Source of the DNA: a virus
Taxonomy: Duplodnaviria > Caudoviricetes
Strand: one strand, 5' to 3'
Virus record (IMG/VR): IMGVR_UViG_3300033463_000008
DNA: 64,000 bases
Part shown: piece after piece, positions 554-48,734 of the stretch
Position numbering within the stretch: the first letter of the stretch is position 1
How the letters are laid out: every line of letters begins with the position of its first letter
Position numbers and translations under genes: made by a program
Notes under the pieces: model-generated
The model's input: the letters and a program-made list of their open reading frames with translations, nothing else
Databases searched by the model: none
Told to the model about the DNA's origin: nothing

Positions 554-1972
554 TCATAAAAAGCTTCCAAAGTCATCAATGCCGGCGGTGTCGGCATAGG
601 TAAATCCCTGCATGGCGGGCTTGGTCACGGTCTGCGCGCCACCCGGAGGAATCGGCAGGAACGTCCTGTCGTCAAAACTTGAAGGCTGGATAGCGGGCAA
701 CGCGACTGGCGCCTTCTTCTTTGCCATTTCCTCGGTAATCATGGAACGGTAGCCATAGGAGCGCATGCTCTGCATGAGGTCCTTGTAGTACGGCTCGACA
801 TCCCAGAAATCAAGCAACTCGAAACCGCAAAGCTCCGGTTCCGGCTGATTGAGCAAGTCGTTCAGGCGGGTGACCACTTCCGGCGGTGTGCAGGAAAGGT
901 CAATCAGCTTACGGTTGCGCATGTACTGGTCACCCCAACCGTTGTTCTTCGCCACATCATATACATTCGGGAACGTCTGGATAAATGTGGCGGCAGTGCC
1001 CTTGCCGAAACGGTTCTTTACTGTAAAATCCAGTTTACCTGTCTTCGGCTTGATGAACGACATGCCGTGAATGTTATCGGAATCGTCGCCGGCAAGTACC
1101 TTGATGTCGAGGTACTTTACCGGATCGTCCACGGTCATGAAGTTGCAACTGATGTGGTCAAATACCTTCACCTTCGGGAAGTTCAACTGCAGCAAGTCGG
1201 AGTCATGCGTCACGACAATCACATCGTCAGACTTTCCACTGAACAGCTTAGCTGCCGCATATACGACATCGTCACCTTCGGCGTCTTCGCATGCAATTGC
1301 ACGGGCACGGAAAAGCGGTGCGAGTTCCCTCGCAAACTGTTCCTTGTACTTTCGCCAAATCTTGCGGTCGACGGTAAACGGCCAGTCATTGCTGTTTCTG
1401 GTACCCTTGTATGACGGAAGAATCGGATTCTTCCCGTTCGGCGCATAGATATTCCAGAACATCTCCTGCTTTTCAGGCGGAAATTCACCCAGCTGCTTAT
1501 GCTTCAACTCATCGAGCTTGGGAAAATCGGCAATAGGAATCGGGATGACGACAAACTTTCCATCCTGGGCCTTGCGGACTTCATAGCCGAGATTGTCTGC
1601 GCGGACGAAGTACGCCTTGTTATCAGGTTCGTTTATGTAGTACACCGTGGCATGTTCGGCATAGTAGTCCTTGACAAACTGCTTGCGCCATGAGCCCGGA
1701 CCTTCAAGGGCGAGCACGATATGCATCGGGTCAAAAAGGGCGATGAGCTTCATCACCTCATCGATCATGAAAGAACGCCAAAGCTTAATTTCACCCTCTG
1801 CACCGATGAACCCGTACTTTTCCCGGTTCTTGGCGGTATTTATCGAAAACATCTTGTGATAGGACATCGACGCCCAGTCCAGGACCAGGCAACGGTTGTT
1901 CACCGACCTATACGACTTCAGGGGAGGCAATTCAAACGCAGGTGCTTTGGGTTTCTTCTTATTTCCGGCCAT
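554..1972 (-). CDS. rnh: T4 RNase H-like 5'-3' exonuclease (FEN/PIN-like)
   Basis: Motifs LVLDW, YKGTR, EDAEGDDVV, THDSDLLQL, LAGDDSDNIHG, RNRKLIDLS. Start taken at MAGNKK (1972), just downstream of the TTGCTACATTT motif. Confidence 0.85.
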   Translation of the reverse strand: MAGNKKKPKAPAFELPPLKSYRSVNNRCLVLDWASMSYHKMFSINTAKNREKYGFIGAEGEIKLWRSFMIDEVMKLIALFDPMHIVLALEGPGSWRKQFVKDYYAEHATVYYINEPDNKAYFVRADNLGYEVRKAQDGKFVVIPIPIADFPKLDELKHKQLGEFPPEKQEMFWNIYAPNGKNPILPSYKGTRNSNDWPFTVDRKIWRKYKEQFARELAPLFRARAIACEDAEGDDVVYAAAKLFSGKSDDVIVVTHDSDLLQLNFPKVKVFDHISCNFMTVDDPVKYLDIKVLAGDDSDNIHGMSFIKPKTGKLDFTVKNRFGKGTAATFIQTFPNVYDVAKNNGWGDQYMRNRKLIDLSCTPPEVVTRLNDLLNQPEPELCGFELLDFWDVEPYYKDLMQSMRSYGYRSMITEEMAKKKAPVALPAIQPSSFDDRTFLPIPPGGAQTVTKPAMQGFTYADTAGIDDFGSFL

Positions 1973-1997
1973 CGATATATTCCAATTCCAATATGGT

Positions 1998-2008
1998 AAA
2001 TGTAGCAA
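1998..2008 (-). promoter_or_regulatory. TTGCTACATTT promoter-like motif (replication-gene class)
   Basis: Same 11-mer (TTGCTAYATTT) lies upstream of the helicase, SSB and polymerase genes. Confidence 0.6.
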
Positions 2009-2115: not shown

Positions 2116-3993
2116 CTAAATCAACGAGAACTTCGGCTTGTATGGAAGGTTCAGTTCCGTCTGGTCCTTCTTCTGCTTCTGCAACCTCTCGGCGGCACGG
2201 TCGGCAGCTTCCTTGCGATGTTTCTTGATATCCTCCGGGGTAAGCTGTGCCTCGTAGATGCCGTCCATGTGCTGTTCCTCTATCGGGATGTTCTCGGCAT
2301 CATAGTACGTCATGCGGTATCTGGAATGGACAAGCATGTAGTTGAACATCTGCTCCATGGTTCCATCCCTCTTGCGCTGCCAGCAGTTAGCATCGTCCAC
2401 AAGGTCATACACGTTGGCGACAGTCTTGTTCGGGTGCTTTCTCACCACACGGCCAATCGACTGCATCACCTTGTACATCGACTTTGCCGGTTCGGCAAGG
2501 ACGAGGTTGTTGAGCTGCTTGATGTTCACGCCCTGCTTCATGCACCCGTAGGTGGCAATGAGGATATTTCCGACACTCCCTTCCAGTTCCTTTCGGATCG
2601 ACTCGCGTTCGGATGCGCTGACTTCACCCTCGATGATGTGGTAGGTGTACTGCGGATACTTCTCTTTCAGGAAGTCATAAAGGTCGTGCAGGCGTTCAAT
2701 TCCGTCATACAGGATGACCGAATTCTGGTCGGCGCCAAGATGCCCCGCGTCGATGAGCATGGCAATCACGTCCTTGCGGGAACTGTTCCCGAGGACGATT
2801 GCCCGTTCCATCTGATATTTGGCATAGCAGATGCCATACCTCGTGTTCTGTGGATACGGGATGTAAATCATGTGCATCTGGACCGGGGTCAGCGTACCGT
2901 TGGCAATCAGGTCACGCAGGTGCACCACGTCATAAATCGGGCCCAACTGGGATTCGATGTTGCATGCGTCAATGAACTCGGCGCTGTCGGTAACATCCCT
3001 GGGCGCCAGGCTGAGGCCAATCTCCCCGTTCCTTCCCCTGTTCTCCTGGGTCGGCTTGATCAGTGGAAGCGTCCCGGAAACGCCGACCTTGAAGTTGTTG
3101 GCGTTCACGCAAAGTTCAAGTATGCCGCGCAGGACAACGCCGCGCATGCCGTGCGCCTCGTCGACGAGTACTGCATCAAAGACCTTGAAAAAGTCCGGGT
3201 GCTTATGCTGGAGCGTCTGCCACGTCGAAATTGTAATCTGCTTCAGGAGCTTTTCTTCACCAATCGACTGCTTCTGCAACTCTTCCAGCTTCTTCTTGGA
3301 AATCCTGTCGGAAGATTCGCCATGCAGCAGGGTGCAGTAGTCCCTTGCCTCATCCCATCCGTAGTCGGTGTAGAAGTTGTCATACAGCTGTTCCACCAGA
3401 CTCTTGCTCGGCACGATTATGAGGATTTTCCTGTTTTCCTTCTCCATCAGGTACCGGGCGATAATCATCATCGACACCGACTTCCCTGCCGAGGTGCATG
3501 CAAACAGAAGGCCCCTGCGCCGGTTTAGCGCAATCTCGACAAGGCGGTACTGGTGTTCATAGGGGACCAGCGATTTTCCGCTTTCGCGGTCATGGATGTT
3601 GAGAGTCTTGGTAAACTCCTCGATATCCTCCCGCGTCACCGTGCCGAATGGTGGGGAGAACATTTTCCTGATATCCTTGGAAATCGTCACGGCGACACGG
3701 TCGCCATACTGCATCTTCAGGTAATCGCGTGCCCTCGGGATCATCCCGGTCGGAATCCACCCCTTGGACTTGTCATAGAAATACTCGTTGCAGTCAAACC
3801 CGCGGATATGGTGCTTGGCTTCCCATGAATACTTCTTCGCCTTGTTGTAGAACGTAAAGGCGGACTGCATGAACATGTGGACTGTCTTCGGGTTGAAATT
3901 CGGGTTTACCGGATATGCCCTGACAGCGGTGTGCGACGAGTCGCCCACCGAGAACTGCACAACAAAATCGTATTTCTTTTCGGTTTCCGCCAT
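2116..3993 (-). CDS. uvsW: UvsW-like superfamily 2 DNA helicase
   Basis: Walker A ACTSAGKS, DEAH, SGT, QSIGRVVR; N-terminal half resembles T4 UvsW (IPTGM, PYEHQ, STWQTL). Confidence 0.88.
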   Translation of the reverse strand: MAETEKKYDFVVQFSVGDSSHTAVRAYPVNPNFNPKTVHMFMQSAFTFYNKAKKYSWEAKHHIRGFDCNEYFYDKSKGWIPTGMIPRARDYLKMQYGDRVAVTISKDIRKMFSPPFGTVTREDIEEFTKTLNIHDRESGKSLVPYEHQYRLVEIALNRRRGLLFACTSAGKSVSMMIIARYLMEKENRKILIIVPSKSLVEQLYDNFYTDYGWDEARDYCTLLHGESSDRISKKKLEELQKQSIGEEKLLKQITISTWQTLQHKHPDFFKVFDAVLVDEAHGMRGVVLRGILELCVNANNFKVGVSGTLPLIKPTQENRGRNGEIGLSLAPRDVTDSAEFIDACNIESQLGPIYDVVHLRDLIANGTLTPVQMHMIYIPYPQNTRYGICYAKYQMERAIVLGNSSRKDVIAMLIDAGHLGADQNSVILYDGIERLHDLYDFLKEKYPQYTYHIIEGEVSASERESIRKELEGSVGNILIATYGCMKQGVNIKQLNNLVLAEPAKSMYKVMQSIGRVVRKHPNKTVANVYDLVDDANCWQRKRDGTMEQMFNYMLVHSRYRMTYYDAENIPIEEQHMDGIYEAQLTPEDIKKHRKEAADRAAERLQKQKKDQTELNLPYKPKFSLI

Positions 3994-3996
3994 TGG

Positions 3997-4464
3997 CTAC
4001 ACCTTGTACCTGTGTCCCTTCGGTTCATCGCTTCGGATGGCATCTCTGCTGACTGCGTCAGTGGAAGCTATCCACATGGCGGTTATTTTACCCGGAGTGT
4101 CCGTCACGAACCAGACAATCACCCTGTATTCGAAGCCTGGCCGTATGTACCCGTCGGTCGATGAAAGGATCCATGACCAGTCGCCCTTCCGCTTGTCGTT
4201 CGGTATTTCGCCTTCGGCCTCAATTTCGGCCTTGACAGCCGACATGACCTTCCCGGCGACATACATCGGGTCCAGACCTTCCACGACATCCGGAAGGTCA
4301 CCTACCATTTCGGCATTGAACGACACCGATTCCCGATGAAATACCGGGAAAAGCTCGATGGTCATCGTCGGCCTTTTCATGCCGGCGTGCCAGTCCGTAG
4401 GGGAATATACGACGACCCGGAACTTCCGGTCCTTGGCAGATATGCTGATACTTCCTTCGCTCAT
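3997..4464 (-). CDS. hypothetical protein
   Basis: ORF abuts uvsW; start MSEGS at 4464 is 6 nt downstream of TTGTTACATTT (4471-4481), suggesting a leaderless transcript. Confidence 0.65.
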   Translation of the reverse strand: MSEGSISISAKDRKFRVVVYSPTDWHAGMKRPTMTIELFPVFHRESVSFNAEMVGDLPDVVEGLDPMYVAGKVMSAVKAEIEAEGEIPNDKRKGDWSWILSSTDGYIRPGFEYRVIVWFVTDTPGKITAMWIASTDAVSRDAIRSDEPKGHRYKV

Positions 4465-4524
4465 GCCCTGAAATGTAACAAATTTGCTACCGGATGTCAA
4501 TAACGGGCATGATTTTTCCACCAG

Positions 4525-4755
4525 GAATCGTAAACATCTTTATGGGAAGTGAGTGACTTTGCCGCAGGCCTGAATCCAGAAACCTTGCCTCCCCGGGCGG
4601 CCATGTACCTGTAGAACAAGCCCGCTTTGCCTGGAACTTACGATTCGCTTACATGGCCCGTCCATGGCAAGCCACGTCCGGTGCCTCCGAATCGTAAACA
4701 TCTTTATGGGAGGGAAGTTACTTTGGCGTGAGCCCACAATCCAGACCCTCCCCGG
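4525..4755. repeat. two degenerate ~70-bp direct repeats with an identical 23-bp core GAATCGTAAACATCTTTATGGGA
   Basis: Cores at 4525-4547 and 4689-4711; shared downstream ACTTTG..AATCCAGA..CTCCCCGG; inverted GAATCGTAA at 4638-4646. Confidence 0.85.
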
Positions 4756-4860
4756 AACGTTGTATCTACAGTATTATGTAAACTTAAATAATTTTTTACA
4801 ATGTATATCAGTGGCAACCTCTTGCTAAAGTCGAAAGCTTTTCGTAACTTTTCCGCTTGA

Positions 4861-5015
4861 GCCTGAGCTGGTGTAGTTCAACTGCACCCGGATATAAGCT
4901 ACGGGCAAACAAAAAATCGGTCTTCGCTGGACCCACGCATCAAGAATTTTTACATTAAGTGCCCCCCGCTGTCTTCTGTCCAGCGATTCATTATAGAGGA
5001 AGACATGGGGGCACT
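4861..5015 (+). promoter_or_regulatory. putative structured 5' leader RNA (hairpins plus pseudoknot/alternative pairing)
   Basis: Stem GGTGTAGTT/AACTGCACC at 4870-4888; stems 4958-4966/5007-5015 and 4970-4976/4999-5005; 4924-4932 is perfectly complementary to loop 4978-4986. Confidence 0.5.
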
Positions 5016-5033
5016 ATCCGTTCAGTAGGTGTC

Positions 5034-6587
5034 ATGCCGGAAACACGAACCAAGTTCGAATATGAAATACGGGTTCTCGACAAGTTCAGGAAACCCATCC
5101 GTGCACTGCTGAAGGAGCACAACATTCCCGAAAGGGACCATGACTATTACTGGTTAATCATACACTGGATAACGAAAGGGCTCATCGAGTCCTATCGCAA
5201 GGCGTATCTGGCAACCATGAAGCCGCCAAAGTGCCGCGAATGGTACTGCCGCCTCTATTCGAAAATCATGGACAACGCCATGGGACACAAGTACATCGAG
5301 GTCTTCGAGAACTTGAAGACCTGGGGTGTCGTCATGCGCGGCGCCTCGTATTGCAAGGCTACCGGGAACGCACCCGGACTGAGCAAGGCGGTATGGTTCG
5401 GTGAAGGGTTCGGGTGGATGCTCAAGGAATACTGCTATGCCAAGGATGTGGCCCATCTGTACGGCAAGGGCAATTTCCATGCTGGCCGTCTGATGCCGGT
5501 GAAGCTCAAGTCAAGAATCCTGTTGAAACGGTTGGAAAAGTGCGCCGAGGAGCGTAAACGGGTTCAGCTCATGGACCCGGTTGTCAATGATGCGCACCGC
5601 AACCTGAAACATTTCCACATCGACCGCGCAAAGGCACAGCGTGCCCTTGTGAGGGCCGGCGTCAAGGGGAAGAAACTTGTCAATGAGATGCGCAAGGTTG
5701 ACCGGTTCAATGACGCCGAGAAAAGCGATACTTCCCTGTTTGTCGTACGTGACGACTATGGCCGCGTGCATACCAATATTACCCAGGTAAAGCGCGAAGT
5801 CAGGGAATCCGCATTGACATGCGATGGCGGACCTGTCACCGAGGTTGACATCAAGAGCAGCCAGGGTGCCTTCCTTTGCTACATCATCGAGGGGTGCCTG
5901 AAGAACATTCCGGCAATGATAGGGAGAAACGGGCAGTCGTTCATCTCGATACCCAAGGACTTTGCAGCCAGCATAGGGGCGGACAGGATAGGACGCGAAT
6001 TCAATGATTTCCGTGACAGGCTGAACCGTCATGAACTCTATGAATTCTTCGCTTCCGAAATGTCGCAGGATTGCGACCTCGACATGGACGTGGACAGGGA
6101 TACCGCCAAGACGGCGTTCCTTGCAACATTGTTTGCCGGCATTAACCTGGACCCTGGCTGTGACCAGACATGGCACGCATGCCGCAGGGTTTGGGAGGAA
6201 CATTATCCATGCCTGAACCGTCTGATCCAGGAGCTGAAGCGAATTAACTACCGGGCCCTTGCTTACGAGCTGCAGAGGATGGAAAGTTCCTTCGTGTTTG
6301 ACTGTGTCATACCCAGGATACAGAGGGAAATAGGATGCCCGTACTGCACTGTCCATGACGAGGTGATTGTTCCGTCCGCCCATGGCGATGCCGTGAAGCG
6401 GATAATCGACGAGGAACTTGACAGGTTTGGTATCCCGACGACTACCGTGGAAGAAAAGGCCGTGCTTGATCCTGACGATGCGACAGTCAATGCCGAGATG
6501 GCTTCGTTCTACGAGGTCGGGTATTATTGCGGATGGGGTGACGCGGTTGACATGCACATCGCCGACGAGTACGCTAACGCGATATAA
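5034..6587 (+). CDS. divergent family A polymerase-like protein (TV-Pol-like) with probable N-terminal winged helix; candidate replication initiator/primase
   Basis: YGRVHTN (TGR-like), motif A EVDIKSSQ, motif B-like RDTAKTAFLATLF, LQRMES, motif C TVHDEVIV; no exonuclease domain; start MPETR at 5034. Confidence 0.7.
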   Translation: MPETRTKFEYEIRVLDKFRKPIRALLKEHNIPERDHDYYWLIIHWITKGLIESYRKAYLATMKPPKCREWYCRLYSKIMDNAMGHKYIEVFENLKTWGVVMRGASYCKATGNAPGLSKAVWFGEGFGWMLKEYCYAKDVAHLYGKGNFHAGRLMPVKLKSRILLKRLEKCAEERKRVQLMDPVVNDAHRNLKHFHIDRAKAQRALVRAGVKGKKLVNEMRKVDRFNDAEKSDTSLFVVRDDYGRVHTNITQVKREVRESALTCDGGPVTEVDIKSSQGAFLCYIIEGCLKNIPAMIGRNGQSFISIPKDFAASIGADRIGREFNDFRDRLNRHELYEFFASEMSQDCDLDMDVDRDTAKTAFLATLFAGINLDPGCDQTWHACRRVWEEHYPCLNRLIQELKRINYRALAYELQRMESSFVFDCVIPRIQREIGCPYCTVHDEVIVPSAHGDAVKRIIDEELDRFGIPTTTVEEKAVLDPDDATVNAEMASFYEVGYYCGWGDAVDMHIADEYANAI

Positions 6588-10900: not shown

Positions 10901-11596
10901 TTAGTAGATTGTCCTGATTTTTTCGCCTTCCGGCACGCCGGTTCGGAGGTATCTGAGTTCCAGCTTTGGCACCTTGGCCATCTTTGCATTTGCGATGGAC
11001 AGCCAGAAACCGAAGAAGTGTTCTGCCAGATATCCGTCAATTCTGCGGTTGGAATCATCCAGGCCAGCCTTCTTGTCGAATTCTGCAAGTAAAGTAAACA
11101 AATCTTTACAGTATGTATCGATAAGAGGCTTCTTGCCGATGAACATGTTGCACTGGATGAGGGACGGACCTTTCAGGTAGTTGACAAACCTGGTTCCGAG
11201 GTTGGTCTCGGTTTCTTCCAGTACCGACAGGAACATGTCAAGCCACTTCATGTACTTGGCATCGGCGAACCACATGAACGCCGAGTAGTTCTTCCTGTGG
11301 AAGAATTCGGTGACAATGATGTCCGACTTGTCGAGGAGCTCGTTCGCCTGGTTCTTGGTCAGCCGTGACCAGCCCTGGTTGTCCGCGTTTGCGAAGAATC
11401 TCCTGTAGTGTTCCAGGCCGATGATGTTTGCTGCCGAATGTTTCCACATGTAGTACAGCGCGGTTAGCTCACAGTACCATGGGTTGAGATTGTCGATATT
11501 GTCCCCCTTGTGCGGGGCGTCCACCAAGAATTTCTCCCTGCCCTCGTCGAGTTCAAGGAAATTGTTGCGTTTTGATCCTACTACATATATGCTCAT
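10901..11596 (-). CDS. DUF4422-family glycosyltransferase
   Basis: GDNIDNLNPWYCELTALYYMWKH, IIGLEHYRRFF, CNMFI, RIDGYLAEHFF are typical DUF4422 motifs. Confidence 0.8.
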   Translation of the reverse strand: MSIYVVGSKRNNFLELDEGREKFLVDAPHKGDNIDNLNPWYCELTALYYMWKHSAANIIGLEHYRRFFANADNQGWSRLTKNQANELLDKSDIIVTEFFHRKNYSAFMWFADAKYMKWLDMFLSVLEETETNLGTRFVNYLKGPSLIQCNMFIGKKPLIDTYCKDLFTLLAEFDKKAGLDDSNRRIDGYLAEHFFGFWLSIANAKMAKVPKLELRYLRTGVPEGEKIRTIY

Positions 11597-15630: not shown

Positions 15631-18600
15631 ATGAGCGTTCGTTCATTATTTGAAAGCACAATCAATGACGCAAAACAGGATGTTGCCGGTATTCGTACCT
15701 CGCTGCTAGGTTTAAAGGGATTGGCCAAGGTATTTCCTGAAATTGTAAGTGAATCCCCATTCTATAGCATTGCCCGGCATAATACGTCGATGTTGCGCTT
15801 CCCGCCAACTTTGCAGTCGGTGATATATGCGGCGTTTCATAAAAACGATGACCCGCTGTACTACAGTATCATCGCCGATGCGGTCACTGACGACACGGCT
15901 CGCCTGAATGATGGCAAAAAGCATAACGATGCGTCTAACATAGCTGGTGGACGTAATGATCCGGAATCTGGCCGTTTGGTCCCGTATGCAATTGATTCAA
16001 ACACCTCAATGCAGGGTGATGCTATTGCCGAACAGCGGAAATCCAGACGGGGCGGTCCGACATTGGCGGAAGCTAGACACTACGTCATGGGTGTGTTGAA
16101 TAACCCCGAAAAGCTGAAGAATATTGGTAAAAATTTTGGTGTTTATTTGTTTGATTTGGAAGATCATATCGAAGGCTCCCGCACTCGAAAGGCGATGCTT
16201 GAAGATATGACCAATGTGATGAATGATGCTCGCAATGAATATGTTGAAGGGTTGTCTTCAAGCAAGCGGGTATCTGCTGATGACAATGGATTGCTTCGTG
16301 AACTCAGGCCGAATCCGGATGTCAAAATCTCGGACGATGAAGTGTATGCGTTTATCGCATGCCGTATGTCTGAACATTACGCCGATGACGTGGAACATGA
16401 AGTAAACGGTCTTGCCGGAAAGAAGTTTAACGACTGGTTCTGGTCGAACAGTCCAGACATTACCGAGATGCCTGATGTCGCAAAGGGAAACGATGTTACT
16501 ATTGCCGACACGGTTGAATTTGTGCACGACTGGGTTGAGGGTCGAGGTGCAACGGAAAGCCGCGAATACCAGACCGGTGAAGGGCGTTCTGAGTATATCG
16601 CGCTTAAAATCTTCAATGATTCCGTTGACTTGACAGGTGCGCCGGTTGCCCCGGAATATTTGCGCCCAATGTTTGCCCAGGATTGCGCTCAGTTCACTGG
16701 TAAGCGCGGCGCGAAAAATGAGATTTCGAAGCCTAATGTAATAGGTCTTGGCTATGAGTTGATTGCTGATGCTTTGGGCATGCAGGAACGCCTCCCAAGA
16801 GTTACGAATACAAAGGGCGAAGTAGTGCGAAGATGCGATGGTGCGGACTTGGATGCCATTCGCGCTCAAATTAATGATTTTATCGCAGAATTGGCAATGG
16901 ATCGTGACAGGGCGAATGAGGTCCGCAATGCTGCAATTGCCAAGTTGAAGTCTAAGCTCGGCGATGCTAATATTTCGAAGCTGGTGCAAAACATTTTGCG
17001 CCAGGTATTCCAGTTGATGCCGCCTGATTTCACTGATACACAATATCCTGGTGTTGCCGGATATGGTGATGAAATCTTGCTCCGTAAAACTAGCGTTGCC
17101 GAAGGTGAAATTACAAGCCGTATTTTAAAGGCTGTTAAACAGTTCCCGAAGCAATATGTTGTGGTTTCTGACGACAAGGGTTCCGGTGCTGTTACGGTGA
17201 AGCTTGGTGATGAAACGGTAACTTTCCGCCAAGGTGCTGGTGATGGTGCTGAAAATCCTGATTCGTTCATTAAGACGACGTTGTTCCCCTACATAGACAG
17301 TACGACATCCTATGCAACTTACACTGAATGGCTGGGTGTTGTTCCGTATAGCCGTGCAGTTGACAATCAGCTTGAACATCTCAATGTAGAAAGTGATGAA
17401 CTGAATGCAGTAAGGCAATCCGAAGGACCGGAAATAGCACAGGATACATTGGATTCCATGGTGGGCGCTCGCCAATCGGCTTCCATGTTGACCGGTACTA
17501 CTGACTTCTATGATAATCCGCCATCTAAGAAGGAAATTGCTTCCACGTTGCCTGCTGCCGATAGGCGTCTCATCAACAGCTGCACTGATGGTGAGCTTCA
17601 GGCGTATGCTATTGTTAAGAGCATAACTGAATATGACAGTAAACTGAAGTTGTATCTGCATACGGCTATTGGTTACAATAGGACTAGCCCGGTTGATGAT
17701 GATACCGCTATTGCAACGGCATCATATCGTTACGCTTTCTATGACGTGTTTGGCAACATCAAGAATCTGGTGTCTGATGCGTCATATGAAGACTTGAAGG
17801 CACAGGCAGTAGAAAAGGCACGCATGTATGCTGCGGTCATGTACAATAACCCTGACTATGATGCGCATGCAAAGGGTCCGGAAGCCATTCATGAGAAAAT
17901 GAATGAGGCGAAGGACTATGCAAGGGAAATGTGCTTTAATTTCACCAGTGCATTAAAATCCCGCGATATTCCAAGTGAAATTGCAAGCGCTTATAATGGT
18001 GACGCGAACGAGTCGCTGAATGCATTCAGAACGTTCCTTATGGATCTTGCGTTGTCCGGAACCAATTTTGTTAAGGGTTATGGCTATCAGTTCCTTAACG
18101 ATATCAATACTTATACCGGCGGTAAGTATGATACTGGCAACCGGATGCTGGTGACATATGATAGTGAAGAGAATATTCCGCTAGGACGCCTTGGTGATGC
18201 AAACCTGGCAGACATGATGCAACGTGTTGATTCCGCCCGTCAGGCGGAAGTGGAACAGATTGCTAAGCTGGCTTCAATTGTAAAAACTTCTTCGATGGGT
18301 TCATACACAAAGGGTCCACGCGAACGGGTAATTCCGGGCGCACGTCCGGAAACAAATAGGGCGCTGCTCAACCAGGTCAAGCAGATGATTGCGTCTATTC
18401 CTGGGGTTGATCAAGCCCGTATTGAAGAAGTGGTTGATGCTTTCAAGGGCCGAGGCTTTGAACAGGGCACTTTGGTTCAGGTATATGCATGCGTATATGC
18501 CGCATTAGTGGCGATTATTCTGAATGGCGATGTTGCAAAAACTATTACGCCGTTGCTTATGTCGCTGGTCCCCGACTCGTATACAACTGCGGTCGATGGA

Positions 18601-21600
18601 TTGATTGCCAAGGCCGAGGAAGTTGATTCAAAGTCCGGTACGGTATCGGGTATTTTGCTGAGTGTTGAAAATGCTCGAAAGAATCTTAAGCTTCTTACGT
18701 CCGATGGCAAGCTCCTTGAACCGATTTACAACGCATTCCGTGGTAATGCGGTCGGCGACGAGGCAGAACGTAAGGCATATGCCAAGATGGCTGCATCGGC
18801 CTTGTCTGTAATTAAGAATAGTCATGATATTGACTCTTTGAAGCAGAATGTGGCCCAGTTCTTCCATACTGAGCCCAGCAAGCTGTCGCAGATTTTTGAC
18901 GAAACCATCCCGTTGGATGATATGCCCGAATCCGAAAATGCCGTTGAACAGCAGGAATACGGAATTGGTGAATACGTTGCTGAAAATATGCCGCAGTGGA
19001 CGCCAAACGGAAAGAATTATGCTGGTCTAACCGGTTATTTTGGATTTGACTCTGTCAGAACCGGGGAAACACATAAAAGTTCTGCTGCAGAACGTCCATT
19101 GGTGGATGGCGAATCTGCGTTCGTTGGATTGAGCCAGGATGCAATGATTGCTTGCGCTGACCATATTCAGTCTGCTAGGGAAGAGTTGAAAGAACTTGAA
19201 TCCCGAGCAGGTTCTGCACAGGCTGATGCCCTGAAGACGGAACATCCACTGTTCTGGGCAGATGATGTAATTGATTACATCGGGACGAATTACATGGAAA
19301 TTCGTCTGAGTGCACGATTGCTTCATTCTCCTAACGGCGTTGTTTTGGATAACGCTAGTGGTGCAGAATGGCTTAAGATAACCAAGAATGCCATTGATGG
19401 CGTGAAGCAAATGTGTGCTAATGGCAAAATCATGCTTCCTGCCGCTGCTGCTATACGTTATGAAGTGTCAAACTTCCTTGATAGGAAGATGGTTGTTGGG
19501 GCGCTTCCGGTAAAGTATGATGATGTGATGAAGATAAGCACCGGCTTTGCTCACATTATCCTTCGCCTTGGCGACATGACGAAGATTGTCAAGATGCCTA
19601 ACCCGTTGCGTGGATTGGCTACGCCGAATTCTGACATTCCGGGTGCAATGCAGGATGTGGCAGCTGAACGTGCTTTCCCTAAGGAAGGACGCGATGACAG
19701 CGTGGAACATCAGTATCTAAATAAGAGTGACGCCCACGAGCTGCTAAACCAGGCGCGTGACAGTGTTACGGATGATAATCTTGCCCATGAATTGGAAAGT
19801 TTGTACAACGACTTTGCAATGGATGCAACTTCTGGCGCACATCGAGTACTGAATTATTTTGTCAGAAACGCTCATGATGTTGACAATAAGCTTCATCGAA
19901 TGGATACTGACATAAATGTCGGCGCCGCTGCAAATAGTACGGCTGCAATGTGGCTGGGACATATCCTTAGGTCTGAGGCAACTGGTGATCGTCAGTATAC
20001 GGCATTGAAAAAGATCTTGGCAGAACAGATTAAGGGCAATGCTGTGCAATTTATTGGGGATGTATTCGAACTTCTTGGATTGAATGAACCCGCTAAGTAT
20101 GGTAGTCGGGCTGGCATGACGTATGCTGAAATGGGATTCAGCAACACAAATACGTCGGCTAAATCCGCCAAGACAGTTGCTGCCAAAAACTTGCTCACTG
20201 TTCCGAAATATTTGGATTCTGTCGTTAGGGCCCTTCGATTCCAGATTGCTGATCGACTGATGGATAACCGTTCATTTAGCCAGCTGGCTAAAGAAGATCC
20301 TGCGTTGATTCAAAAAATCGCTGATACGTTCTTTAACCTTGCGGGCAATTTGGATGGTGGAAAGACGGCTGCAATATTTGCCGCTCTTGACCCGGCTGAA
20401 CGCAATGCCGCTCATGCTGCATTTGCTGGCAAGGTACGTGACGAGATTAATACGGATGAAACTATTGGTGCGGCGTATGACTCTGATGAGTTTACAAAAG
20501 AACTTACGGGTGCATACCCAACACATGATGTTGGTAGCAAATCCGAAATCAAACAGTTGATTGGTGATATTATTGAACCTGATGGAAAGACCAATGAAGC
20601 CAAGGCTAAAAATAGGGCTGATGCCTATGCCAAGCTAGGTGACCTTGCGGGTGAAGATGCTGTCGATTTTGTGCAGAGTAAACTGGGGTCCAGTGCTGCT
20701 TCTAAAATAATGGCTGACGGAACTTCTGTGTCTGAAAGAGATCGTATGAGTGAATTGCTTAGCAACAAAATCATCACTCTCTTTGGAACTGACCCTAGAG
20801 GAGCTTACGACCGTGGCACTAAAATCGATACCGCCATTGCCAATACAAGCGAGAAGCTTGCGAACGCATTGCATGGCGTATTAACCGCCCGAGAACAGGC
20901 TGCTAAACTTCTTGGTGTGCATACTGCTGAATTTGTTGCCGAAGTTGGGAAAAATTCAGCCTTGCTGAGTGACACTGGTATGCGCAGTTGGCTGAGTGCT
21001 AATCACGTCAACAATCTTGATGCATCGAATGTTGCTGAACTTGTTAAGCTCGCTGGATTGATGGCCGTGCGGCTTAATGAAATCAAGGCTATTGAAGGTG
21101 CTGGTTATATTGATTTTGTAGAATCTTGCCGCATAACGCTTGAATCCAGGGGCGATAATCATTATACGCTCGATGGGATTAAGGATTTGCTTGGTGAGAT
21201 TCGCGAATCCGGCGCGGGCGGATGGTATACTAGGTTGATGAAGTATGCTGCTAATCAGGCTCAGACGGATGCAAAACCGGGGCTGGTGGGTAAACGTCGT
21301 AAAAACTCCAATATGGGTGATTTTGAACGTGAGCTCGACACGGTTGACAATAAGCTTGTTGGTTCAGTGAATGCTTCCAATACCCGCTCTCGTGCAGTCG
21401 GTGGAAATTTTGGCGAATCTTATTTGAATCAGTCTAACACACGGACCTTTGACGCTATAAAGAATACCGTGCGTAAGGAATTGATGAATATTCCTCTTGG
21501 TGCTGACGAAGAAGAAATGAACCAAGTGTTCCAAAAGCTGAAGAAGGGTACTGGCTTTGAAGGTAGTATCCGTAAATTCATGCAAGAATTGCTTTATGGC

Positions 21601-22650
21601 CACGAATCTCGTCACCAGCTTGCATCACGGTATGCTAACGACCCGAAGAATTACAGCGCTAGCGGTGTTCGTAGGGCTATGAACGGTCCGATTGGTGCAT
21701 TGGCTCCTGAAGCTGCTAAGACGCCAATGCGTGGCGATATCACGGAAGCCGACATGAGATGGATTGCTCATATTGGTATTCCTGGCATCTCCATGGTAAT
21801 TGACGCCGATGGCGAGGAAACTGACAATATCATCATTGGTAATAACCAGCCGATGAATATCAATACGCCAGTTGCCAGAATGACCATGCGTACGCTCATC
21901 AACAAGGCTGAACAGAAACTCGGTAAGTCTATCTTTGACGATAAGGGCGATATTATCGAGGAGGCATATCCAGTTCTCAGAAGACTTGCCCAAGGCAACG
22001 TTGCTGCTTATGACCCGATCGTTGCTACGGACCGTGCGGTTCCGGTGTTCGTCGGCATCATTCAGAATTCCATGGATTCTTCGACTGGCCGTCCGTGGGC
22101 TGTTCGTGATGACAAGGGTAACTTCGTTCATAAGTTCACCGACGAAAACAAGAACATGTTCTCGGTTACGTTTGGTGTGGACAAGATTAAGAGCATTGTC
22201 AACAGCTTGTTCAACGGCAAGTATAGCGATGCTTCCCAGGAAGAACTCAAGCAGGCAATTGGTGAATTCCTTAGCCGCAAGAAGAGCTCCATCCCGTCGA
22301 ATATGGTGGTGATGGTTGAAAATCGGGTTAAGGGAGATATCAATGGGGTTGCCGAAAGAATTGCCAAGGACTTGGTTGCTGCCGGTGACATTAAGCGTAG
22401 TGATCGTGGTGTTCGGGTTGAGTGGTTGAATCCACCGGAACCGGAGAATCCACCTCCGGTGAGGGCTCGCGGCCCGGTCCGTGGCCCGAGGGCCAATGCC
22501 CCGGCACCGAAACCGGTTGCTGCCCCGGCCCCGGAACCTGTTCCGCCGGTGAACGCCGGTGCCCAGGCACCTAAGAAAGCCAGGGCTCCCAGAAAACCGA
22601 AGGTAACCCCGGCTGCTCCGCCTCCAGCAAGTGAGGAAGAACCTGTATAA
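15631..22650 (+). CDS. giant (2339 aa) hypothetical late protein, candidate virion-internal/ejected protein
   Basis: Uninterrupted 7-kb ORF, late motif, SLFES near the N-terminus, Pro/Ala/Lys-rich C-terminal tail; no recognised catalytic motif. Confidence 0.8.
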   Translation: MSVRSLFESTINDAKQDVAGIRTSLLGLKGLAKVFPEIVSESPFYSIARHNTSMLRFPPTLQSVIYAAFHKNDDPLYYSIIADAVTDDTARLNDGKKHNDASNIAGGRNDPESGRLVPYAIDSNTSMQGDAIAEQRKSRRGGPTLAEARHYVMGVLNNPEKLKNIGKNFGVYLFDLEDHIEGSRTRKAMLEDMTNVMNDARNEYVEGLSSSKRVSADDNGLLRELRPNPDVKISDDEVYAFIACRMSEHYADDVEHEVNGLAGKKFNDWFWSNSPDITEMPDVAKGNDVTIADTVEFVHDWVEGRGATESREYQTGEGRSEYIALKIFNDSVDLTGAPVAPEYLRPMFAQDCAQFTGKRGAKNEISKPNVIGLGYELIADALGMQERLPRVTNTKGEVVRRCDGADLDAIRAQINDFIAELAMDRDRANEVRNAAIAKLKSKLGDANISKLVQNILRQVFQLMPPDFTDTQYPGVAGYGDEILLRKTSVAEGEITSRILKAVKQFPKQYVVVSDDKGSGAVTVKLGDETVTFRQGAGDGAENPDSFIKTTLFPYIDSTTSYATYTEWLGVVPYSRAVDNQLEHLNVESDELNAVRQSEGPEIAQDTLDSMVGARQSASMLTGTTDFYDNPPSKKEIASTLPAADRRLINSCTDGELQAYAIVKSITEYDSKLKLYLHTAIGYNRTSPVDDDTAIATASYRYAFYDVFGNIKNLVSDASYEDLKAQAVEKARMYAAVMYNNPDYDAHAKGPEAIHEKMNEAKDYAREMCFNFTSALKSRDIPSEIASAYNGDANESLNAFRTFLMDLALSGTNFVKGYGYQFLNDINTYTGGKYDTGNRMLVTYDSEENIPLGRLGDANLADMMQRVDSARQAEVEQIAKLASIVKTSSMGSYTKGPRERVIPGARPETNRALLNQVKQMIASIPGVDQARIEEVVDAFKGRGFEQGTLVQVYACVYAALVAIILNGDVAKTITPLLMSLVPDSYTTAVDGLIAKAEEVDSKSGTVSGILLSVENARKNLKLLTSDGKLLEPIYNAFRGNAVGDEAERKAYAKMAASALSVIKNSHDIDSLKQNVAQFFHTEPSKLSQIFDETIPLDDMPESENAVEQQEYGIGEYVAENMPQWTPNGKNYAGLTGYFGFDSVRTGETHKSSAAERPLVDGESAFVGLSQDAMIACADHIQSAREELKELESRAGSAQADALKTEHPLFWADDVIDYIGTNYMEIRLSARLLHSPNGVVLDNASGAEWLKITKNAIDGVKQMCANGKIMLPAAAAIRYEVSNFLDRKMVVGALPVKYDDVMKISTGFAHIILRLGDMTKIVKMPNPLRGLATPNSDIPGAMQDVAAERAFPKEGRDDSVEHQYLNKSDAHELLNQARDSVTDDNLAHELESLYNDFAMDATSGAHRVLNYFVRNAHDVDNKLHRMDTDINVGAAANSTAAMWLGHILRSEATGDRQYTALKKILAEQIKGNAVQFIGDVFELLGLNEPAKYGSRAGMTYAEMGFSNTNTSAKSAKTVAAKNLLTVPKYLDSVVRALRFQIADRLMDNRSFSQLAKEDPALIQKIADTFFNLAGNLDGGKTAAIFAALDPAERNAAHAAFAGKVRDEINTDETIGAAYDSDEFTKELTGAYPTHDVGSKSEIKQLIGDIIEPDGKTNEAKAKNRADAYAKLGDLAGEDAVDFVQSKLGSSAASKIMADGTSVSERDRMSELLSNKIITLFGTDPRGAYDRGTKIDTAIANTSEKLANALHGVLTAREQAAKLLGVHTAEFVAEVGKNSALLSDTGMRSWLSANHVNNLDASNVAELVKLAGLMAVRLNEIKAIEGAGYIDFVESCRITLESRGDNHYTLDGIKDLLGEIRESGAGGWYTRLMKYAANQAQTDAKPGLVGKRRKNSNMGDFERELDTVDNKLVGSVNASNTRSRAVGGNFGESYLNQSNTRTFDAIKNTVRKELMNIPLGADEEEMNQVFQKLKKGTGFEGSIRKFMQELLYGHESRHQLASRYANDPKNYSASGVRRAMNGPIGALAPEAAKTPMRGDITEADMRWIAHIGIPGISMVIDADGEETDNIIIGNNQPMNINTPVARMTMRTLINKAEQKLGKSIFDDKGDIIEEAYPVLRRLAQGNVAAYDPIVATDRAVPVFVGIIQNSMDSSTGRPWAVRDDKGNFVHKFTDENKNMFSVTFGVDKIKSIVNSLFNGKYSDASQEELKQAIGEFLSRKKSSIPSNMVVMVENRVKGDINGVAERIAKDLVAAGDIKRSDRGVRVEWLNPPEPENPPPVRARGPVRGPRANAPAPKPVAAPAPEPVPPVNAGAQAPKKARAPRKPKVTPAAPPPASEEEPV

Positions 22651-24077: not shown

Positions 24078-25343
24078 AGTATAGGGGCGGGAAAACTCAC
24101 CGCCTTTTTAGGCGGCGAGATGAAAGCCTCTTTAATAAACTGTTAAAATGGAGTATATTTGAGATATGTTTCAACGGGCATACAACATCCGGTTATATCC
24201 AAGCCGGCAGCAGGCGGTCTTGCTAGGCAAGACCTTCGGCTGTTGCCGCAAGGTGTACAACTGCATGCTGGATGCCCGTTTGAAGTCGTATGAGGCGACC
24301 GGCACACAGTGTCGGACAAAACCAACCGACTATTATGCCGAGTTTCCGTTTCTAAAAGAAGTTGACAGCAACGCCCTCACAGGCGAAGTCCTCAACCTGA
24401 ACGCGGCATTCAAGAACTTCTTCAAACGGAAGGCCGATGGGGTCGGGCTTCCGAAGTTCAAGGCCAAGCATCGCGACCGCGACTCCTATACCAGTTACCG
24501 GACAAAAGAAAATATCCGAATCGAGAACGGCAGGCTGCGCCTTCCGAAAATCGGGTTTGTCAAGTTCAAGGATTATAAGAATATCGACTGGAACGGGAAG
24601 GATATCAAGCACGCGACTGTAAGCCGGTCGCGTTCGGGAAAGTTCTACGCCTCGATAATGGTCGAGGAGGAAGCGCCGAAGACACTCTCAAAATCCGATT
24701 ATGCCGTAGGCATCGACATAGGAATCAAGGACTTCTGCGTGACGAGCGACGGCGAGGCCGTCGCCAACCCGCGCTATATGAAACAGGCCGAGGACCGCCT
24801 CGCGGTCCTCCAGAAGGCTTTTTCAAAGAAAAATGGCAAGTCAGTTCGACGCGAGGCGCTGCGCAAGCGCATCGCCCGCCTCCACGAGCACATTGCTAGC
24901 CAACGCAAGGATTTTCTCCACAAGCTATCATCCCGACTCATTCGCGAGAACCAAACGATTGCAGTCGAGGACTTGGATGTAAGGCAGGTCGCCGAAGGCG
25001 ATCTTGCCAAGTCCGAGCATGATACCGGGTGGGGAATGTTCCTGAACATGCTGAATTACAAGGCTGAATGGTATGGAAGGACCATCGTCCGTGTCGGACG
25101 ATGGTTCCCTTCCTCGCAAATCTGCCACTGCTGTGGCTTCAGGAACGAAGTTGTTAAAAATTTGAGTGTCCGGGAGTGGAAGTGCCCGCAATGCGGCACT
25201 TCCCACAATAGAGACCTCAATGCCGCCATCAACATCCTTGACGAAGGCAAAAGAATTCTCGCCGCCGGAACGGCGGTCCAAGGCGCGGGCGCTCCTACGG
25301 GGCTAACGCGAAGCGTGCAGCTTTCAAGCTGTGCGTAGTTCAC
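24078..25343 (+). mobile_element. IS200/IS605-family element, tnpB-only (IS1341-like, non-autonomous)
   Basis: TTTAT (24073-24077) 18 nt before left-end hairpin CTCACCGCC-TTTTTA-GGCGGCGAG (24096-24119); right-end hairpin 25314-25335 followed by TAGTTCAC; TTTAT/TCAC is a known TAM/TEM pair in this family; no tnpA. Confidence 0.8.
24166..25338 (+). CDS. tnpB: TnpB RNA-guided endonuclease
   Basis: AYNIRLYP...[12 protein letters not shown]; RuvC-I GIDIG, RuvC-II AVEDL, zinc finger CHCCG/CPQCG, Ruv[13 protein letters not shown]; all three acidic catalytic residues present. Confidence 0.95.
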
Positions 25344-25359
25344 AATTTGAGAGGAATAC
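25261..25359 (+). ncRNA. putative TnpB omega RNA (about 83-nt scaffold plus flank-derived guide AATTTGAGAGGAATAC)
   Basis: Hairpin 25261-25277 whose loop GAAC can pair with GTTC 25338-25341; hairpins 25291-25303 and 25314-25335; overlaps the tnpB 3' end; 5' boundary is inferred. Confidence 0.6.
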
Positions 25360-25360
25360 C

Positions 25361-26347
25361 ATGAAAGATGTCTATACTGTTATAGGTGTGGCTAGGAAAG
25401 CCAGCGATGAGGAAATTCTTGCCGCATACAAGAAACGGGCGCGCGAATTGCATCCAGACCACGGTGGAAGCCCGGAACAGATGGCTGAGCTTAATGAAGC
25501 GTATGCCAAGATTAAGACGCCGGAGTTGCGTCGGAAATATGATGCCTCACATTCGTTTTCGAGTACAATGGCTACGTGGAGTGCCGCGATGGGAAAGTCA
25601 AGCGTAGCCAAAAATTTTGGCAATGCACCAATTTCGACAGATCCGCGCAAGGTTGACGGCACTGATGCCCCGGTGAATGTGGAAATTTCCATGGAGGCTT
25701 TTGTAAAGGGCGCTCCTATCATGACGGTGCAGTACATGGTCGAGCATGAATGCCTTGAATGTTCGGGTACAGGGGGTGACCATCTGGAAACATGCCCGAA
25801 CTGCCACGGTGAACGTAATGTACGCACGGTAACGAATGAAGGTGACAAGGTTATCAGATGCCCGGTATGTTCCGGTACGGGCATGGTTCCGGTTGGACAA
25901 TGTGTCGTATGTGGCGGAACCGGGGTTTCCGGCAAGCAGGTGAGCCATTCATTCCATTACAAGAAAGGTACCGTCGATATGGTTGTCCCGGGAAAGGGGA
26001 ATGGTGGCCGATACGGGGGCATGAACGGAAATCTTGTATTGGAATTCCACCCAAAGGCGACGAAACATTTGAGCTTTGATGGCGACAAGTTCATTTATTT
26101 CCACCAATTGCCGGTAGAAAGCTTCATTTTGGGAACATCGGTCGAAATAGACTATCCGGGTCCATTGATGGTCAAGAAGATACCGGCTGGAAGTACGTAC
26201 AGTTACAAGGAAACTGTAGAAAATTTCATGGGCCTGCCATATCCATGCGATTTTGTGTTTACCCCCGCCGACGAACCTGCCTCGGATGCCATAAAGGGTA
26301 AGCTGGAAGAAATTTCAAAACTGCGAATGAATATAGTTTCCGACTAA
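25361..26347 (+). CDS. dnaJ: DnaJ-family co-chaperone
   Basis: J domain with LHPD; four CxxCxGxG-type repeats; GKGNGG...GNL C-terminal domain; GAGG RBS. Confidence 0.88.
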   Translation: MKDVYTVIGVARKASDEEILAAYKKRARELHPDHGGSPEQMAELNEAYAKIKTPELRRKYDASHSFSSTMATWSAAMGKSSVAKNFGNAPISTDPRKVDGTDAPVNVEISMEAFVKGAPIMTVQYMVEHECLECSGTGGDHLETCPNCHGERNVRTVTNEGDKVIRCPVCSGTGMVPVGQCVVCGGTGVSGKQVSHSFHYKKGTVDMVVPGKGNGGRYGGMNGNLVLEFHPKATKHLSFDGDKFIYFHQLPVESFILGTSVEIDYPGPLMVKKIPAGSTYSYKETVENFMGLPYPCDFVFTPADEPASDAIKGKLEEISKLRMNIVSD

Positions 26348-32679: not shown

Positions 32680-34011
32680 ATGGCTAAGAAAGTAGCAAAT
32701 GTAGCAGCGACGGGTGTACAGGTTGCCCCAAATTTCGGTTTCTTCCGCAAGTTGAAGACCGGGGATAAATACCTGGACCATAACAAGAAACGTCCTGAAT
32801 ACGGTTTTATTAACAGCGGTTCCTATGCGTTTAACGCGGCTTTGTCCGGTGACGTATATCAGGGCTTCCACATGAACAAGTTCTTCATGGCGGTGGGTTT
32901 CTTCGGAACCGGTAAGTCCTTGATTGCCAAGTTGAACTTTGCCCTCGAACTCATGAAGCAGGGCTATTATATTTTCTGGTATGACACCGAAAATGAAACC
33001 ACCGAAGAAATGCTCATCGAGAACTTCGGGTTCATTCCTGGCCAGTTCGAAATTGTCCGTATGCATACGGTCGAAGAATTCCACCACAGTATGTCCATGA
33101 TCGTCAGCCAGCTTGAAGAAGACAAGGGTGAAAAGTTTGAAAATGAACGTAAGTGCGCCATTGTGCTTGACTCTGCGGGCGGTCTCTTTACGAACAAGGG
33201 TGTGGACGATGCCCAGAAGGGTGCCGATAGCGCTGACATGACCAAGGCTAAGAAGTTGAAGGCCTTCTTCACCGACATGACATTCCGTTGCGGTGAACTC
33301 GGTGTGCCGATGTACATTACCAACCACAAGTATTTGAAGCCGACCAGCTACGGCAACCCGGAAGAAATTGCTGGTGGTGAAGGCGCCAAGTATTTTGCCC
33401 GTGTCATCTTTGACCTTACCGTTGGATTCGAAGTTGTTTCTGCAACTGACAAGACAAAACTCGGCCTTATCCTGAACGTGAACATCAAGAAGAGCTGCTT
33501 TGTCCACGTCGGTACCAAGGTCAAGATGTACCTTGACTGGAAGACCGGACTGAATCCATACTACGGTCTTCATGATATCGCCAAGGCGGCTGGCCTCCTT
33601 GATGCTTATTCTGCCACAAAGTATCCGGATGTCACTCCTCCTGCTGGCCGTATCGGCAATGCCGGTGCATGGGTCATCAAGGATCCGCGCAAGCCGCGTT
33701 CCGAATGGATTACCTGCTTGAACAAGGACCTCCACAAGGCTGAAACCATCGGTACCATCCTTGACCCGATTAACGACTATGTCCATGAAACCTACAAGAA
33801 TAGGTCTCTTGCCGACAAGCTCGGTGAGAACGGCATCGACGAGAGCGTAAGTCTCGAAGTGGACGAGGAAGCAGTCGAACGCAACCTCGAAAGGGTCAAG
33901 AAGGAATCCAAGAAGAAGGCCGCCAGCATGGCGAAGGCCCTCGGCGAAGAGGAAGAGGCACCGGAACCGGAAACTGCCGCCATGGTGGTTTCGGACGAAG
34001 TTGCCGAATAA
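32680..34011 (+). CDS. uvsX: UvsX/RecA-like recombinase
   Basis: INSGSYAFNAALSG, Walker A GFFGTGKS, YDTENE, IVLDSAGGL, DMTKAK, ITNH, GGEG, GLNPYYGL. Confidence 0.92.
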   Translation: MAKKVANVAATGVQVAPNFGFFRKLKTGDKYLDHNKKRPEYGFINSGSYAFNAALSGDVYQGFHMNKFFMAVGFFGTGKSLIAKLNFALELMKQGYYIFWYDTENETTEEMLIENFGFIPGQFEIVRMHTVEEFHHSMSMIVSQLEEDKGEKFENERKCAIVLDSAGGLFTNKGVDDAQKGADSADMTKAKKLKAFFTDMTFRCGELGVPMYITNHKYLKPTSYGNPEEIAGGEGAKYFARVIFDLTVGFEVVSATDKTKLGLILNVNIKKSCFVHVGTKVKMYLDWKTGLNPYYGLHDIAKAAGLLDAYSATKYPDVTPPAGRIGNAGAWVIKDPRKPRSEWITCLNKDLHKAETIGTILDPINDYVHETYKNRSLADKLGENGIDESVSLEVDEEAVERNLERVKKESKKKAASMAKALGEEEEAPEPETAAMVVSDEVAE

Positions 34012-39515: not shown

Positions 39516-39532
39516 CATTGAGTGTTTATTTA

Positions 39533-48669: not shown

Positions 48670-48689
48670 TCGCTGAAAGAAAAAATGTG

Positions 48690-48725
48690 AAAATCCACCC
48701 ATTGGGTGGATTTTTTGCTATATTT
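48690..48725 (+). terminator. terminator whose T-tract runs into a TTGCTATATTT promoter-like motif
   Basis: AAAATCCACCC-ATT-GGGTGGATTTTTT, then TTGCTATATTT at 48715-48725. Confidence 0.75.
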
Positions 48726-48734
48726 CCAAACGAA

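Follow-up and report, generated by a model that had tools for sequence, protein, structure and literature searches.

A predicted winged-helix polymerase beside promoter-like repeats: a candidate replication-origin module in a huge T4-like phage

Introduction

To our knowledge, the way in which replication starts in huge phages is essentially unknown, and the locus described here raises the question of whether an additional polymerase may take part in it. The locus lies in a 64,000-nucleotide stretch of the IMG/VR virus record IMGVR_UViG_3300033463_000008 (hereafter the window, to which coordinates refer unless stated otherwise), which is contained in a viral record of 198 kb, estimated to be 53% complete. 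At positions 4465-6587, a non-coding gap with two repeats and an AT-rich tract is followed by the gene for a 517-amino-acid (aa) protein, P0001, which is predicted to join a winged-helix domain to a polymerase core (Table 1). An initial annotation had taken this protein for an origin-specific initiator or primase acting on the adjacent repeats. We put roughly even chances on the reading that the segment is a replication-origin module whose polymerase initiates synthesis at promoter-like sites of its own.

A conserved motif upstream of the polymerase gene

The gap in front of the polymerase gene measures 569 bp if the divergent gene on its left begins at its ATG and 512 bp if an upstream GTG is used; as had been noted initially, it is the longest gap in the open reading frame (ORF) map of the window. 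The two degenerate units of about 70 bp that had been described in it are 77% identical when aligned and share the exact 23-mer GAATCGTAAACATCTTTATGGGA. About 2e-9 such pairs would be expected by chance within 570 bp, and no further copy of the 23-mer occurs in the 198-kb record.

Within the 23-mer lies a shorter element, which we call M1. The initial annotation had made the persistence of the upstream repeats in homologues its own test, and M1 does recur upstream of homologous genes. The comparison covered 55 related loci taken from viral contigs, mostly records of 130-570 kb. M1 consists of an A-rich stretch, an invariant AAACAT, five non-G bases and then T-G/A-G; a G is found in the five-base block in none of 28 instances. 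The resulting architecture, a fixed recognition block with a G-free block and then GG behind it, appears by analogy to parallel the layout of T7-class promoters. Fourteen loci carry two direct copies, all on the strand of the polymerase gene and 125-1030 bp upstream of its start, one of these loci encoding a protein at 26% identity, and the spacing between copies ranges from 96 to 820 bp across loci. A clade at 33-35% identity has a single copy, GTGAGAACATATAGTG, and a clade at 25-27% identity has the variant GGGAAAACATAAATGG in one or two copies, the variants following the protein clades.

In the upstream DNA, 55 kb in total, a loose M1 pattern matched 33 times; in the remainder of these loci the background was 0.035 per kb. 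In whole records, two complete genomes (422 and 419 kb, with terminal repeats) have exactly one M1 each and the records of 355, 253 and 198 kb exactly two each, all at the polymerase locus, and control scans of whole records with the reversed pattern gave zero matches. Because the copies are confined to this one locus in the scanned records, a role of M1 as a general phage promoter was rejected. To judge from these comparisons, M1 is a single-locus element that has been kept with the polymerase gene over deep divergence.

In one clade (L009, 4842-5664; L032, 957-1779), an ORF of about 250 aa lies between the M1 copies, which are separated by about 820 bp; the pair appears to tolerate an insertion the size of a gene. 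The single M1 of the two complete genomes, whose terminal repeats are direct (G001:C1:207643-207658, locus L060; G002:C1:207965-207980, locus L058), stands almost in the middle, at 49.2% and 49.6% of the total length, a position that would correspond to a central origin if the genome ends are physical ends. When two family members were compared by tblastn with 50,697 phage records, matches were confined to unannotated metagenomic huge phages. A 735-kb metagenomic phage (L196, LR756501.1 523118-529110) encodes a 397-aa relative with 26% identity to P0129; the divergent non-coding gap of about 700 bp upstream of this gene has no M1 motif and holds a two-copy repeat, TTTATCGTTAAWAAAAT, 343 bp apart, which may be due to chance in AT-rich DNA.

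The AT-rich tract and the structured leader

The AT-rich tract that the initial annotation had placed after the repeats is indeed present and contains a second conserved motif, M2, with the sequence TATTATGTAAACTTAAA at 4772-4788, which recurs in loci L002, L003, L015, L017 and L018. Written as TATTATGTAAACT(T/A)AA (4772-4790), M2 is found in or near the AT tract, in either orientation and sometimes between two M1 copies, and it is present in clades with just 32-35% polymerase identity. It may be a site for another factor. As for the inverted half-copy reported between the repeats, a 10-nt stretch at 4638-4647 is complementary to 4688-4697 as claimed; since about 0.4 such 10-nt inverted pairs are expected per 900 nt and the alignment with the three closest relatives is poor here, we treat it as chance.

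The conserved block downstream of the tract is possibly the ordinary, putative promoter of the polymerase gene. Between this block and the gene, the claim of a structured leader holds up: the segment 4850-5036 folds with z = -2.6, 13 of the 38 pairs in the consensus of four phages are kept by two-sided compensatory change, and locus L004 has an equivalent of the leader hairpin with 18-nt arms of different sequence. No Rfam family matched the segment 3900-5300 at E ≤ 1. When 16 repeat units were folded, 14 were not more stable than shuffled sequences, the units of L017 and L019 having z of about -3, and RNAalifold on eight units returned just a 4-bp stem. A mini-hairpin after CTTTG displays apparent covariation among the closest phages when inspected by eye. 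The alternative raised in the initial annotation, that the polymerase uses the upstream RNA or the repeats as a template, found no support, the repeat units not being unusually structured.

Contigs from three rumen RNA libraries fall on coding regions, including that of the polymerase, which is not proof of transcription; none covers 4464-4933, and these contigs, being of low depth, are uninformative either way on repeat transcripts. A hidden protein gene in the gap was also considered and rejected, the minus-strand ORFs in the equivalent gap of relatives not being conserved as protein.

A possible replication-origin signature at the locus

Mapping of the origin by GC skew, which had been suggested initially, places the cumulative minimum at the locus in three genomes. 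In this record (G000) the global minimum is at 68,247, that is, at window position 5298, and the motif at 68,834-69,020; in G001 (complete, 422 kb) they are at 211,043 and 207,650, and in G006 (355 kb) at 154,213 and 152,934-153,769, so that minimum and motif are separated by 0.4-3.4 kb. In G001 and G006, the predominant gene orientation changes from minus to plus at this point. The skew minimum and the orientation switch together would fit the classical picture of a bidirectional origin, as supporting evidence and not as proof.

The protein joins a predicted winged helix to a predicted core of the PolA/T7-RNAP type

Sequence searches of P0001 against Pfam (E ≤ 1), PHROGs and the PDB returned no usable match. 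The protein has 42 close homologues, and 1582 cluster representatives are found at E ≤ 0.001, mostly of 380-550 aa and unnamed. The initial annotation had expected AlphaFold and Foldseek to reveal a winged helix and a palm of the PolA/T7 RNA polymerase (RNAP) type, and this is the fold that was found. In the AlphaFold model, built from a 36-sequence alignment (mean predicted local distance difference test score, pLDDT, 79), the core at residues 172-468 matches Aquifex Pol I with Z 11.4 (root-mean-square deviation 3.9 over 238 aa), followed by Klenow (10.9), yeast mitochondrial RNAP (10.9), T7 RNAP (9.0) and N4 RNAPII (7.3), the next unrelated folds having Z of about 5. In Foldseek against the PDB, all 50 of the top 50 matches are family A polymerases.

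The palm motifs of PolA type that had been picked out by eye are real and invariant in the family: R244, D272, K359, H441 and D442 are unchanged across 129 diverse relatives; within the close family, R355 and F367 vary little or not at all. The core motifs read GRxHT (also D240xxGR244), D272-IKSSQ, R355/K359/F367, Q414..E417-S and TVHD442, and R355/K359/F367 align with R518/K522/Y530 of T7 DNA polymerase (DNAP) in an hhalign comparison that is not significant overall. The 517-aa protein contains no exonuclease domain, again as had been stated. The predicted fold and the catalytic motifs together place P0001 in the PolA/T7-RNAP structural superfamily.

With the N-terminal domain (168 residues, modelled alone), all top matches are winged-helix DNA binders, the best at Z 5.8. 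They comprise Fur, MarR, ORC/Cdc6 and the plasmid initiators pi (Z 4.8), RepA (4.5) and that of a multidrug-resistance (MDR) plasmid (5.2), and these three initiators tie with Fur, MarR, ORC and many other winged-helix proteins. Atlas clusters of RepA_N, PadR, IclR/LexA and HTH_36 also match, and the invariant residues of the domain are W70, G84, Y87, R102, Y106, G115 and K118. Its predicted recognition helix comprises aa 86-96, and R102 and K118 fall in the wing. The model thus predicts a winged helix at the level of the fold class.

Mixed hallmarks of DNA and RNA polymerases

P0001 matches neither Pfam DNA_pol_A (PF00476; E ≤ 1), which is also without a match anywhere in the 198-kb record, nor Pfam RNA_pol (PF00940); one distant relative scores 16.2 bits against RNA_pol, below the cut-off of 22. 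Alignments of the family by hhalign with T7 RNAP and with T7 DNAP are not significant. The sole PDB match of a broad family profile is N4 RNAPII (E = 0.019, over motifs B and C), the family consensus of motif C is TVHDS, with HDS as in T7-like RNAPs, and an Atlas cluster carrying PF00940 aligns with a TM-score of 0.47. By Z score, family A DNA polymerases fit the core at least as well as RNAPs do.

In Klenow, E710 is the steric gate, and in T7 RNAP, Y639 is the tyrosine that selects ribonucleoside triphosphates (rNTPs). Q277 of P0001, five residues past the motif A aspartate and at the start of the next helix in the model, takes the position of the steric-gate glutamate of Klenow, and F367 takes that of Klenow Y766 and T7 RNAP Y639. 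Since Q277 stands at the steric gate and F367 replaces the rNTP-selecting tyrosine, these residues would lean weakly towards the use of deoxynucleoside triphosphates (dNTPs). Priming with dNTPs is described for a family A enzyme, the SCCmec primase CCPol-MP (PMC7581432). The family as a whole mixes hallmarks of DNA- and RNA-polymerising enzymes. A 129-sequence profile found no match in phage Ma-LMM01, which is said to carry a TV-Pol, in a search that had no positive control.

A possible mechanism and its rivals

We propose that the winged-helix/polymerase protein would recognise the asymmetric, promoter-like M1 upstream of its own gene, present here in two tandem copies, and that, helped by the adjacent AT-rich tract, it would begin a chain de novo at the G-G that ends each copy, positions 4544/4545 and 4708/4709. 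The product, a primer or an R-loop/D-loop, would be extended by the family B polymerase (PolB) replisome of the phage, and replication would then run both ways from the module. The product could be RNA or DNA, and may be DNA. Because PolB, primase, helicase, SSB and UvsX are all encoded by the phage itself, the enzyme is, by gene content, an extra one and not the replicase, which agrees with the initial remark that it comes in addition to PolB and primase: a complete T4-type replisome is encoded. The proposed link of the enzyme to an origin and to the adjacent repeats has gained substantial comparative support; what we infer is that M1 is bound by the protein and serves as its point of initiation, from which replication starts.

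A more specific form of this proposal, which we advance only tentatively and think somewhat less probable than its opposite, is that of a self-contained initiator, in which winged-helix origin recognition and a minimal polymerase are combined in one polypeptide that lays the first primer, possibly of DNA. Such an initiator would act at a single promoter-like site per genome and serve a T4-type replisome in huge phages of Bacteroidota. Literature searches returned no description of this polymerase family or of such an origin.

Several points weigh against an origin module. Both M1 copies face one way, and, as in T7, a bidirectional start would need an extra step. A DnaG-type primase is already encoded by the phage, and it is usually host RNAP transcripts that prime T4-like origins. 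GC skew and the direction of the genes are confounded, so that the minimum may reflect nothing but divergent transcription; the three genomes with a skew minimum are moreover related and syntenic, and hence are not independent tests. The winged-helix prediction reaches no higher than Z 5.8, and a conserved cis element beside a gene would equally fit an autoregulatory operator or a private promoter.

The last of these objections leads to the main rival of the origin module, according to which M1 is an operator or private promoter element for the enzyme's own winged-helix domain and the polymerase acts elsewhere, in repair, lesion bypass, gap filling or counter-defence, with a skew minimum produced by divergent transcription. 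This account, which we consider unlikely while giving it real weight, is in keeping with the constant placement of M1 upstream of the gene and in the gene's orientation, with the tight control of expression that the conserved structured leader suggests, with the presence of the winged-helix repressors MarR, Fur, IclR and PadR among the best fold matches, and with the confounding just mentioned. However, the distance between M1 and the start codon is variable and, at 125-1030 bp, far for a simple operator; in the window, M1 lies upstream of both the AT tract and the conserved promoter-like block; and an asymmetric element with a G-free block and then GG suits an initiation site better than a repressor site. 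A role in repair would also leave unexplained why the gene is found at the genome-wide skew minimum in three genomes. We regard as distinctly unlikely a further explanation, in which the enzyme is a minimal RNA polymerase resembling that of T7 or N4 RNAPII, with M1 as its sole promoters and no direct role in replication. The products of the enzyme would be two short non-coding RNAs, transcripts of its own gene or of the rightward operon, or several of these. The profile match to N4 RNAPII, with mitochondrial RNAP next and no DNA polymerase, points in this direction, as do the D-x2-G-R motif and the TVHDS consensus, which resemble T7-like RNAPs (PMC4496689), the sub-threshold match of one relative to Pfam RNA_pol, the alignment of the PF00940 cluster and the promoter-like layout of M1. 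One or two promoters per 200-420-kb genome would be very few for a transcriptase, however, and the putative short RNAs find no echo in the folding of the repeat units (14 of 16 no stabler than shuffles) or in Rfam, Q277 and F367 speak weakly against a strict RNAP, and DNA polymerases score at least as high as RNAPs by fold. It is very improbable, finally, that M1 and the AT tract form an origin read by a host factor or by another phage protein, with the polymerase as a mere neighbour. Conserved gene order in the lineage means that the linkage could be inherited and not functional, and M2 suggests further binding factors, but the polymerase protein has its own predicted DNA-binding domain, the motif variants track the protein clades, and an extra polymerase exactly at the origin would be an unexplained coincidence.

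Comparison with known systems

The nearest precedent for an origin module of the proposed kind is the primary origin of T7, in which an AT-rich stretch comes after the tandem promoters phi1.1A and phi1.1B, themselves 75 bp apart, next to the RNAP gene (PMC8373140). In both loci, two tandem sites of about 20 nt point in the same direction and precede an AT-rich stretch, the neighbouring gene encodes a polymerase of the PolA/T7-RNAP superfamily, and a different enzyme is the replicase; the order of recognition block, AT melting block and GG start in the T7 promoters has its counterpart in the proposed layout of M1. They differ in that T7 RNAP is a general transcriptase of 883 aa with dozens of promoters, whereas the enzyme here has 517 aa and a one-locus motif, and in that a predicted winged-helix N-terminus replaces the N-terminal domain of T7 RNAP, to which the P0001 family has no detectable sequence similarity. 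The sites are upstream of the gene here and downstream in T7, and the product here may be DNA.

In its architecture the protein also resembles the TV-Pols, whose minimal core has been described and some of which have an extra N-terminal helical domain (PMC2579912), and CCPol-MP. These enzymes share with P0001 a family A core of about 400-600 aa (thumb, beta-hairpin Arg, palm, and fingers with RxxxK) without an exonuclease, and, like it, they come from viruses or mobile elements equipped with further polymerases, with priming proposed or shown (PMC2579912; PMC7581432). In contrast to TV-Pols, the neighbourhood of the polymerase here is free of a D5-like helicase, a resolvase, an integrase and a transposase. 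CCPol keeps the equivalents of E710 and F762, whereas the P0001 family has Q277 and no Phe at K359+4, and CCPol-MP has only a weak start-site preference, compared with the 20-nt site proposed here. Polymerases of the CCPol-MP type have a small OB-fold single-strand-binding partner beside them; the 155-aa neighbour here matched no family.

N4 RNAPII (gp15/gp16) provides the best PDB profile match as well as a fold match, and within the T7-like family it is very small, with a promoter that is short and AT-rich (PMC4496689). It differs in being a heterodimer, in its dependence on gp1 and gp2 and in transcribing numerous middle genes (PMC4496689); the sequence match is marginal, and DNA polymerases fit the core fold better. 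Iteron replicons, for their part, have winged-helix initiators, of which pi, RepA and that of the MDR plasmid are among the fold matches of the predicted N-terminal domain, and they resemble the locus in having repeated sites beside an AT-rich tract and the gene of the known or candidate initiator. They have regular arrays of four or more sites, whereas here one or two asymmetric, promoter-like copies are found 96-820 bp apart, beside a candidate initiator fused to a polymerase in a huge lytic-type phage with its own replisome. The iteron-like layout suggested in the initial annotation was accordingly dropped, and nothing points to the plasmid-like state that had been considered with it.

By analogy, the locus would extend the known kinds of polymerase-primed origin and PolA-type primase. 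If the origin module is real, a dedicated polymerase and one cognate site per genome would make a simple, portable origin system, and a third priming route, with a defined recognition site of 20-30 nt, would stand beside those of DnaG and archaeo-eukaryotic (AEP) primases. A function would thereby be given to a large unnamed family of PolA-like proteins, and a natural, very small pair of sequence-specific polymerase and site would become available as a possible orthogonal tool for priming or transcription. Because of its mixed hallmarks, the family also bears on the divergence of DNA- and RNA-polymerising family A enzymes.

Phage setting and neighbouring genes

The phage that carries the locus is huge, T4-like and of lytic type, with its own replisome. 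The DNA runs and RNA libraries that match the stretch come from bovine gut metagenomes, and the nearest Atlas structure clusters mostly carry Bacteroidota labels. Genes to the right of the module are on the plus strand, and the exonuclease, the helicase and the 155-aa gene to its left are on the minus strand.

Table 1. Coordinates of the candidate module, its parts and other replication genes in the window
Feature	Position	Strand	Remarks
Divergent intergenic region, candidate origin	4465-5033		Non-coding, 569 bp
Repeat unit 1	4525-4596	+	Core 4525-4547; M1 (AAACAT CTTTA TGG) at 4532-4545
Repeat unit 2	4689-4755	+	Core 4689-4711; M1 at 4696-4709
AT-rich tract, candidate DNA-unwinding element	4772-4808		89% A+T; aligns with relatives; contains M2
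Conserved block CTTGCTAAAGTCGAAAGCTTTTCGTAACTTTTC	4821-4853	+	Runs of invariant columns in the four closest phages
Structured 5' leader, several hairpins	4861-5015	+	Long hairpin at 4958-5015, ending 18 nt before the start codon
Winged-helix/polymerase gene (P0001), 517 aa	5034-6587	+	ORF
Predicted N-terminal winged-helix domain, aa 5-172	5046-5549	+	Model, pLDDT 90
Predicted polymerase core (thumb, palm, fingers), aa 172-468	5547-6437	+	Structure match and motifs
5'-3' exonuclease	554-2008	-	Left of the candidate module
Superfamily 2 (SF2) helicase (ResIII/DEAD + Helicase_C)	2116-3993	-	Left of the candidate module
Small divergent gene, 155 aa from ATG	3997-4464	-	Left border of the gap
UvsX-like recombinase	32680-34011		Replication gene
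DnaB-like helicase	34140-35801		Replication gene
SSB	37907-39469		Replication gene
Primase	39518-40693		Replication gene, DnaG-type
Family B polymerase (PolB)	48687-51659		Replication gene

Family searches with the 155-aa divergent gene gave no assignment. It evolves fast, with clear homologues only in the three closest phages, where the helicase is always adjacent; its Atlas record begins at residue 20, which corresponds to the ATG, and the upstream GTG is an alternative start. Gene order near the locus is conserved, the helicase being close by in 35 loci and a 326-aa protein in 24. The SF2 helicase was considered as a dedicated partner of the polymerase and rejected, as its relatives occur in hundreds of phages without a nearby polymerase homologue; more than 589 relatives at about 30% identity are found in other viral contigs, many of them small, and by its distribution it is a widespread T4-like core gene.

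Elsewhere in the window, ORFs of 2339 aa (15631-22650) and 1528 aa (51722-56308) have no PHROG match at E ≤ 1e-5. The genes to the right of the polymerase include one for a DUF4422 protein (10901-11596, minus strand; E = 3.7e-42). At 24166-26347, the gene for a 390-aa transposase (phrog_506, E = 3.5e-123) precedes that for a 338-aa protein, an arrangement that resembles an insertion element in the phage genome.

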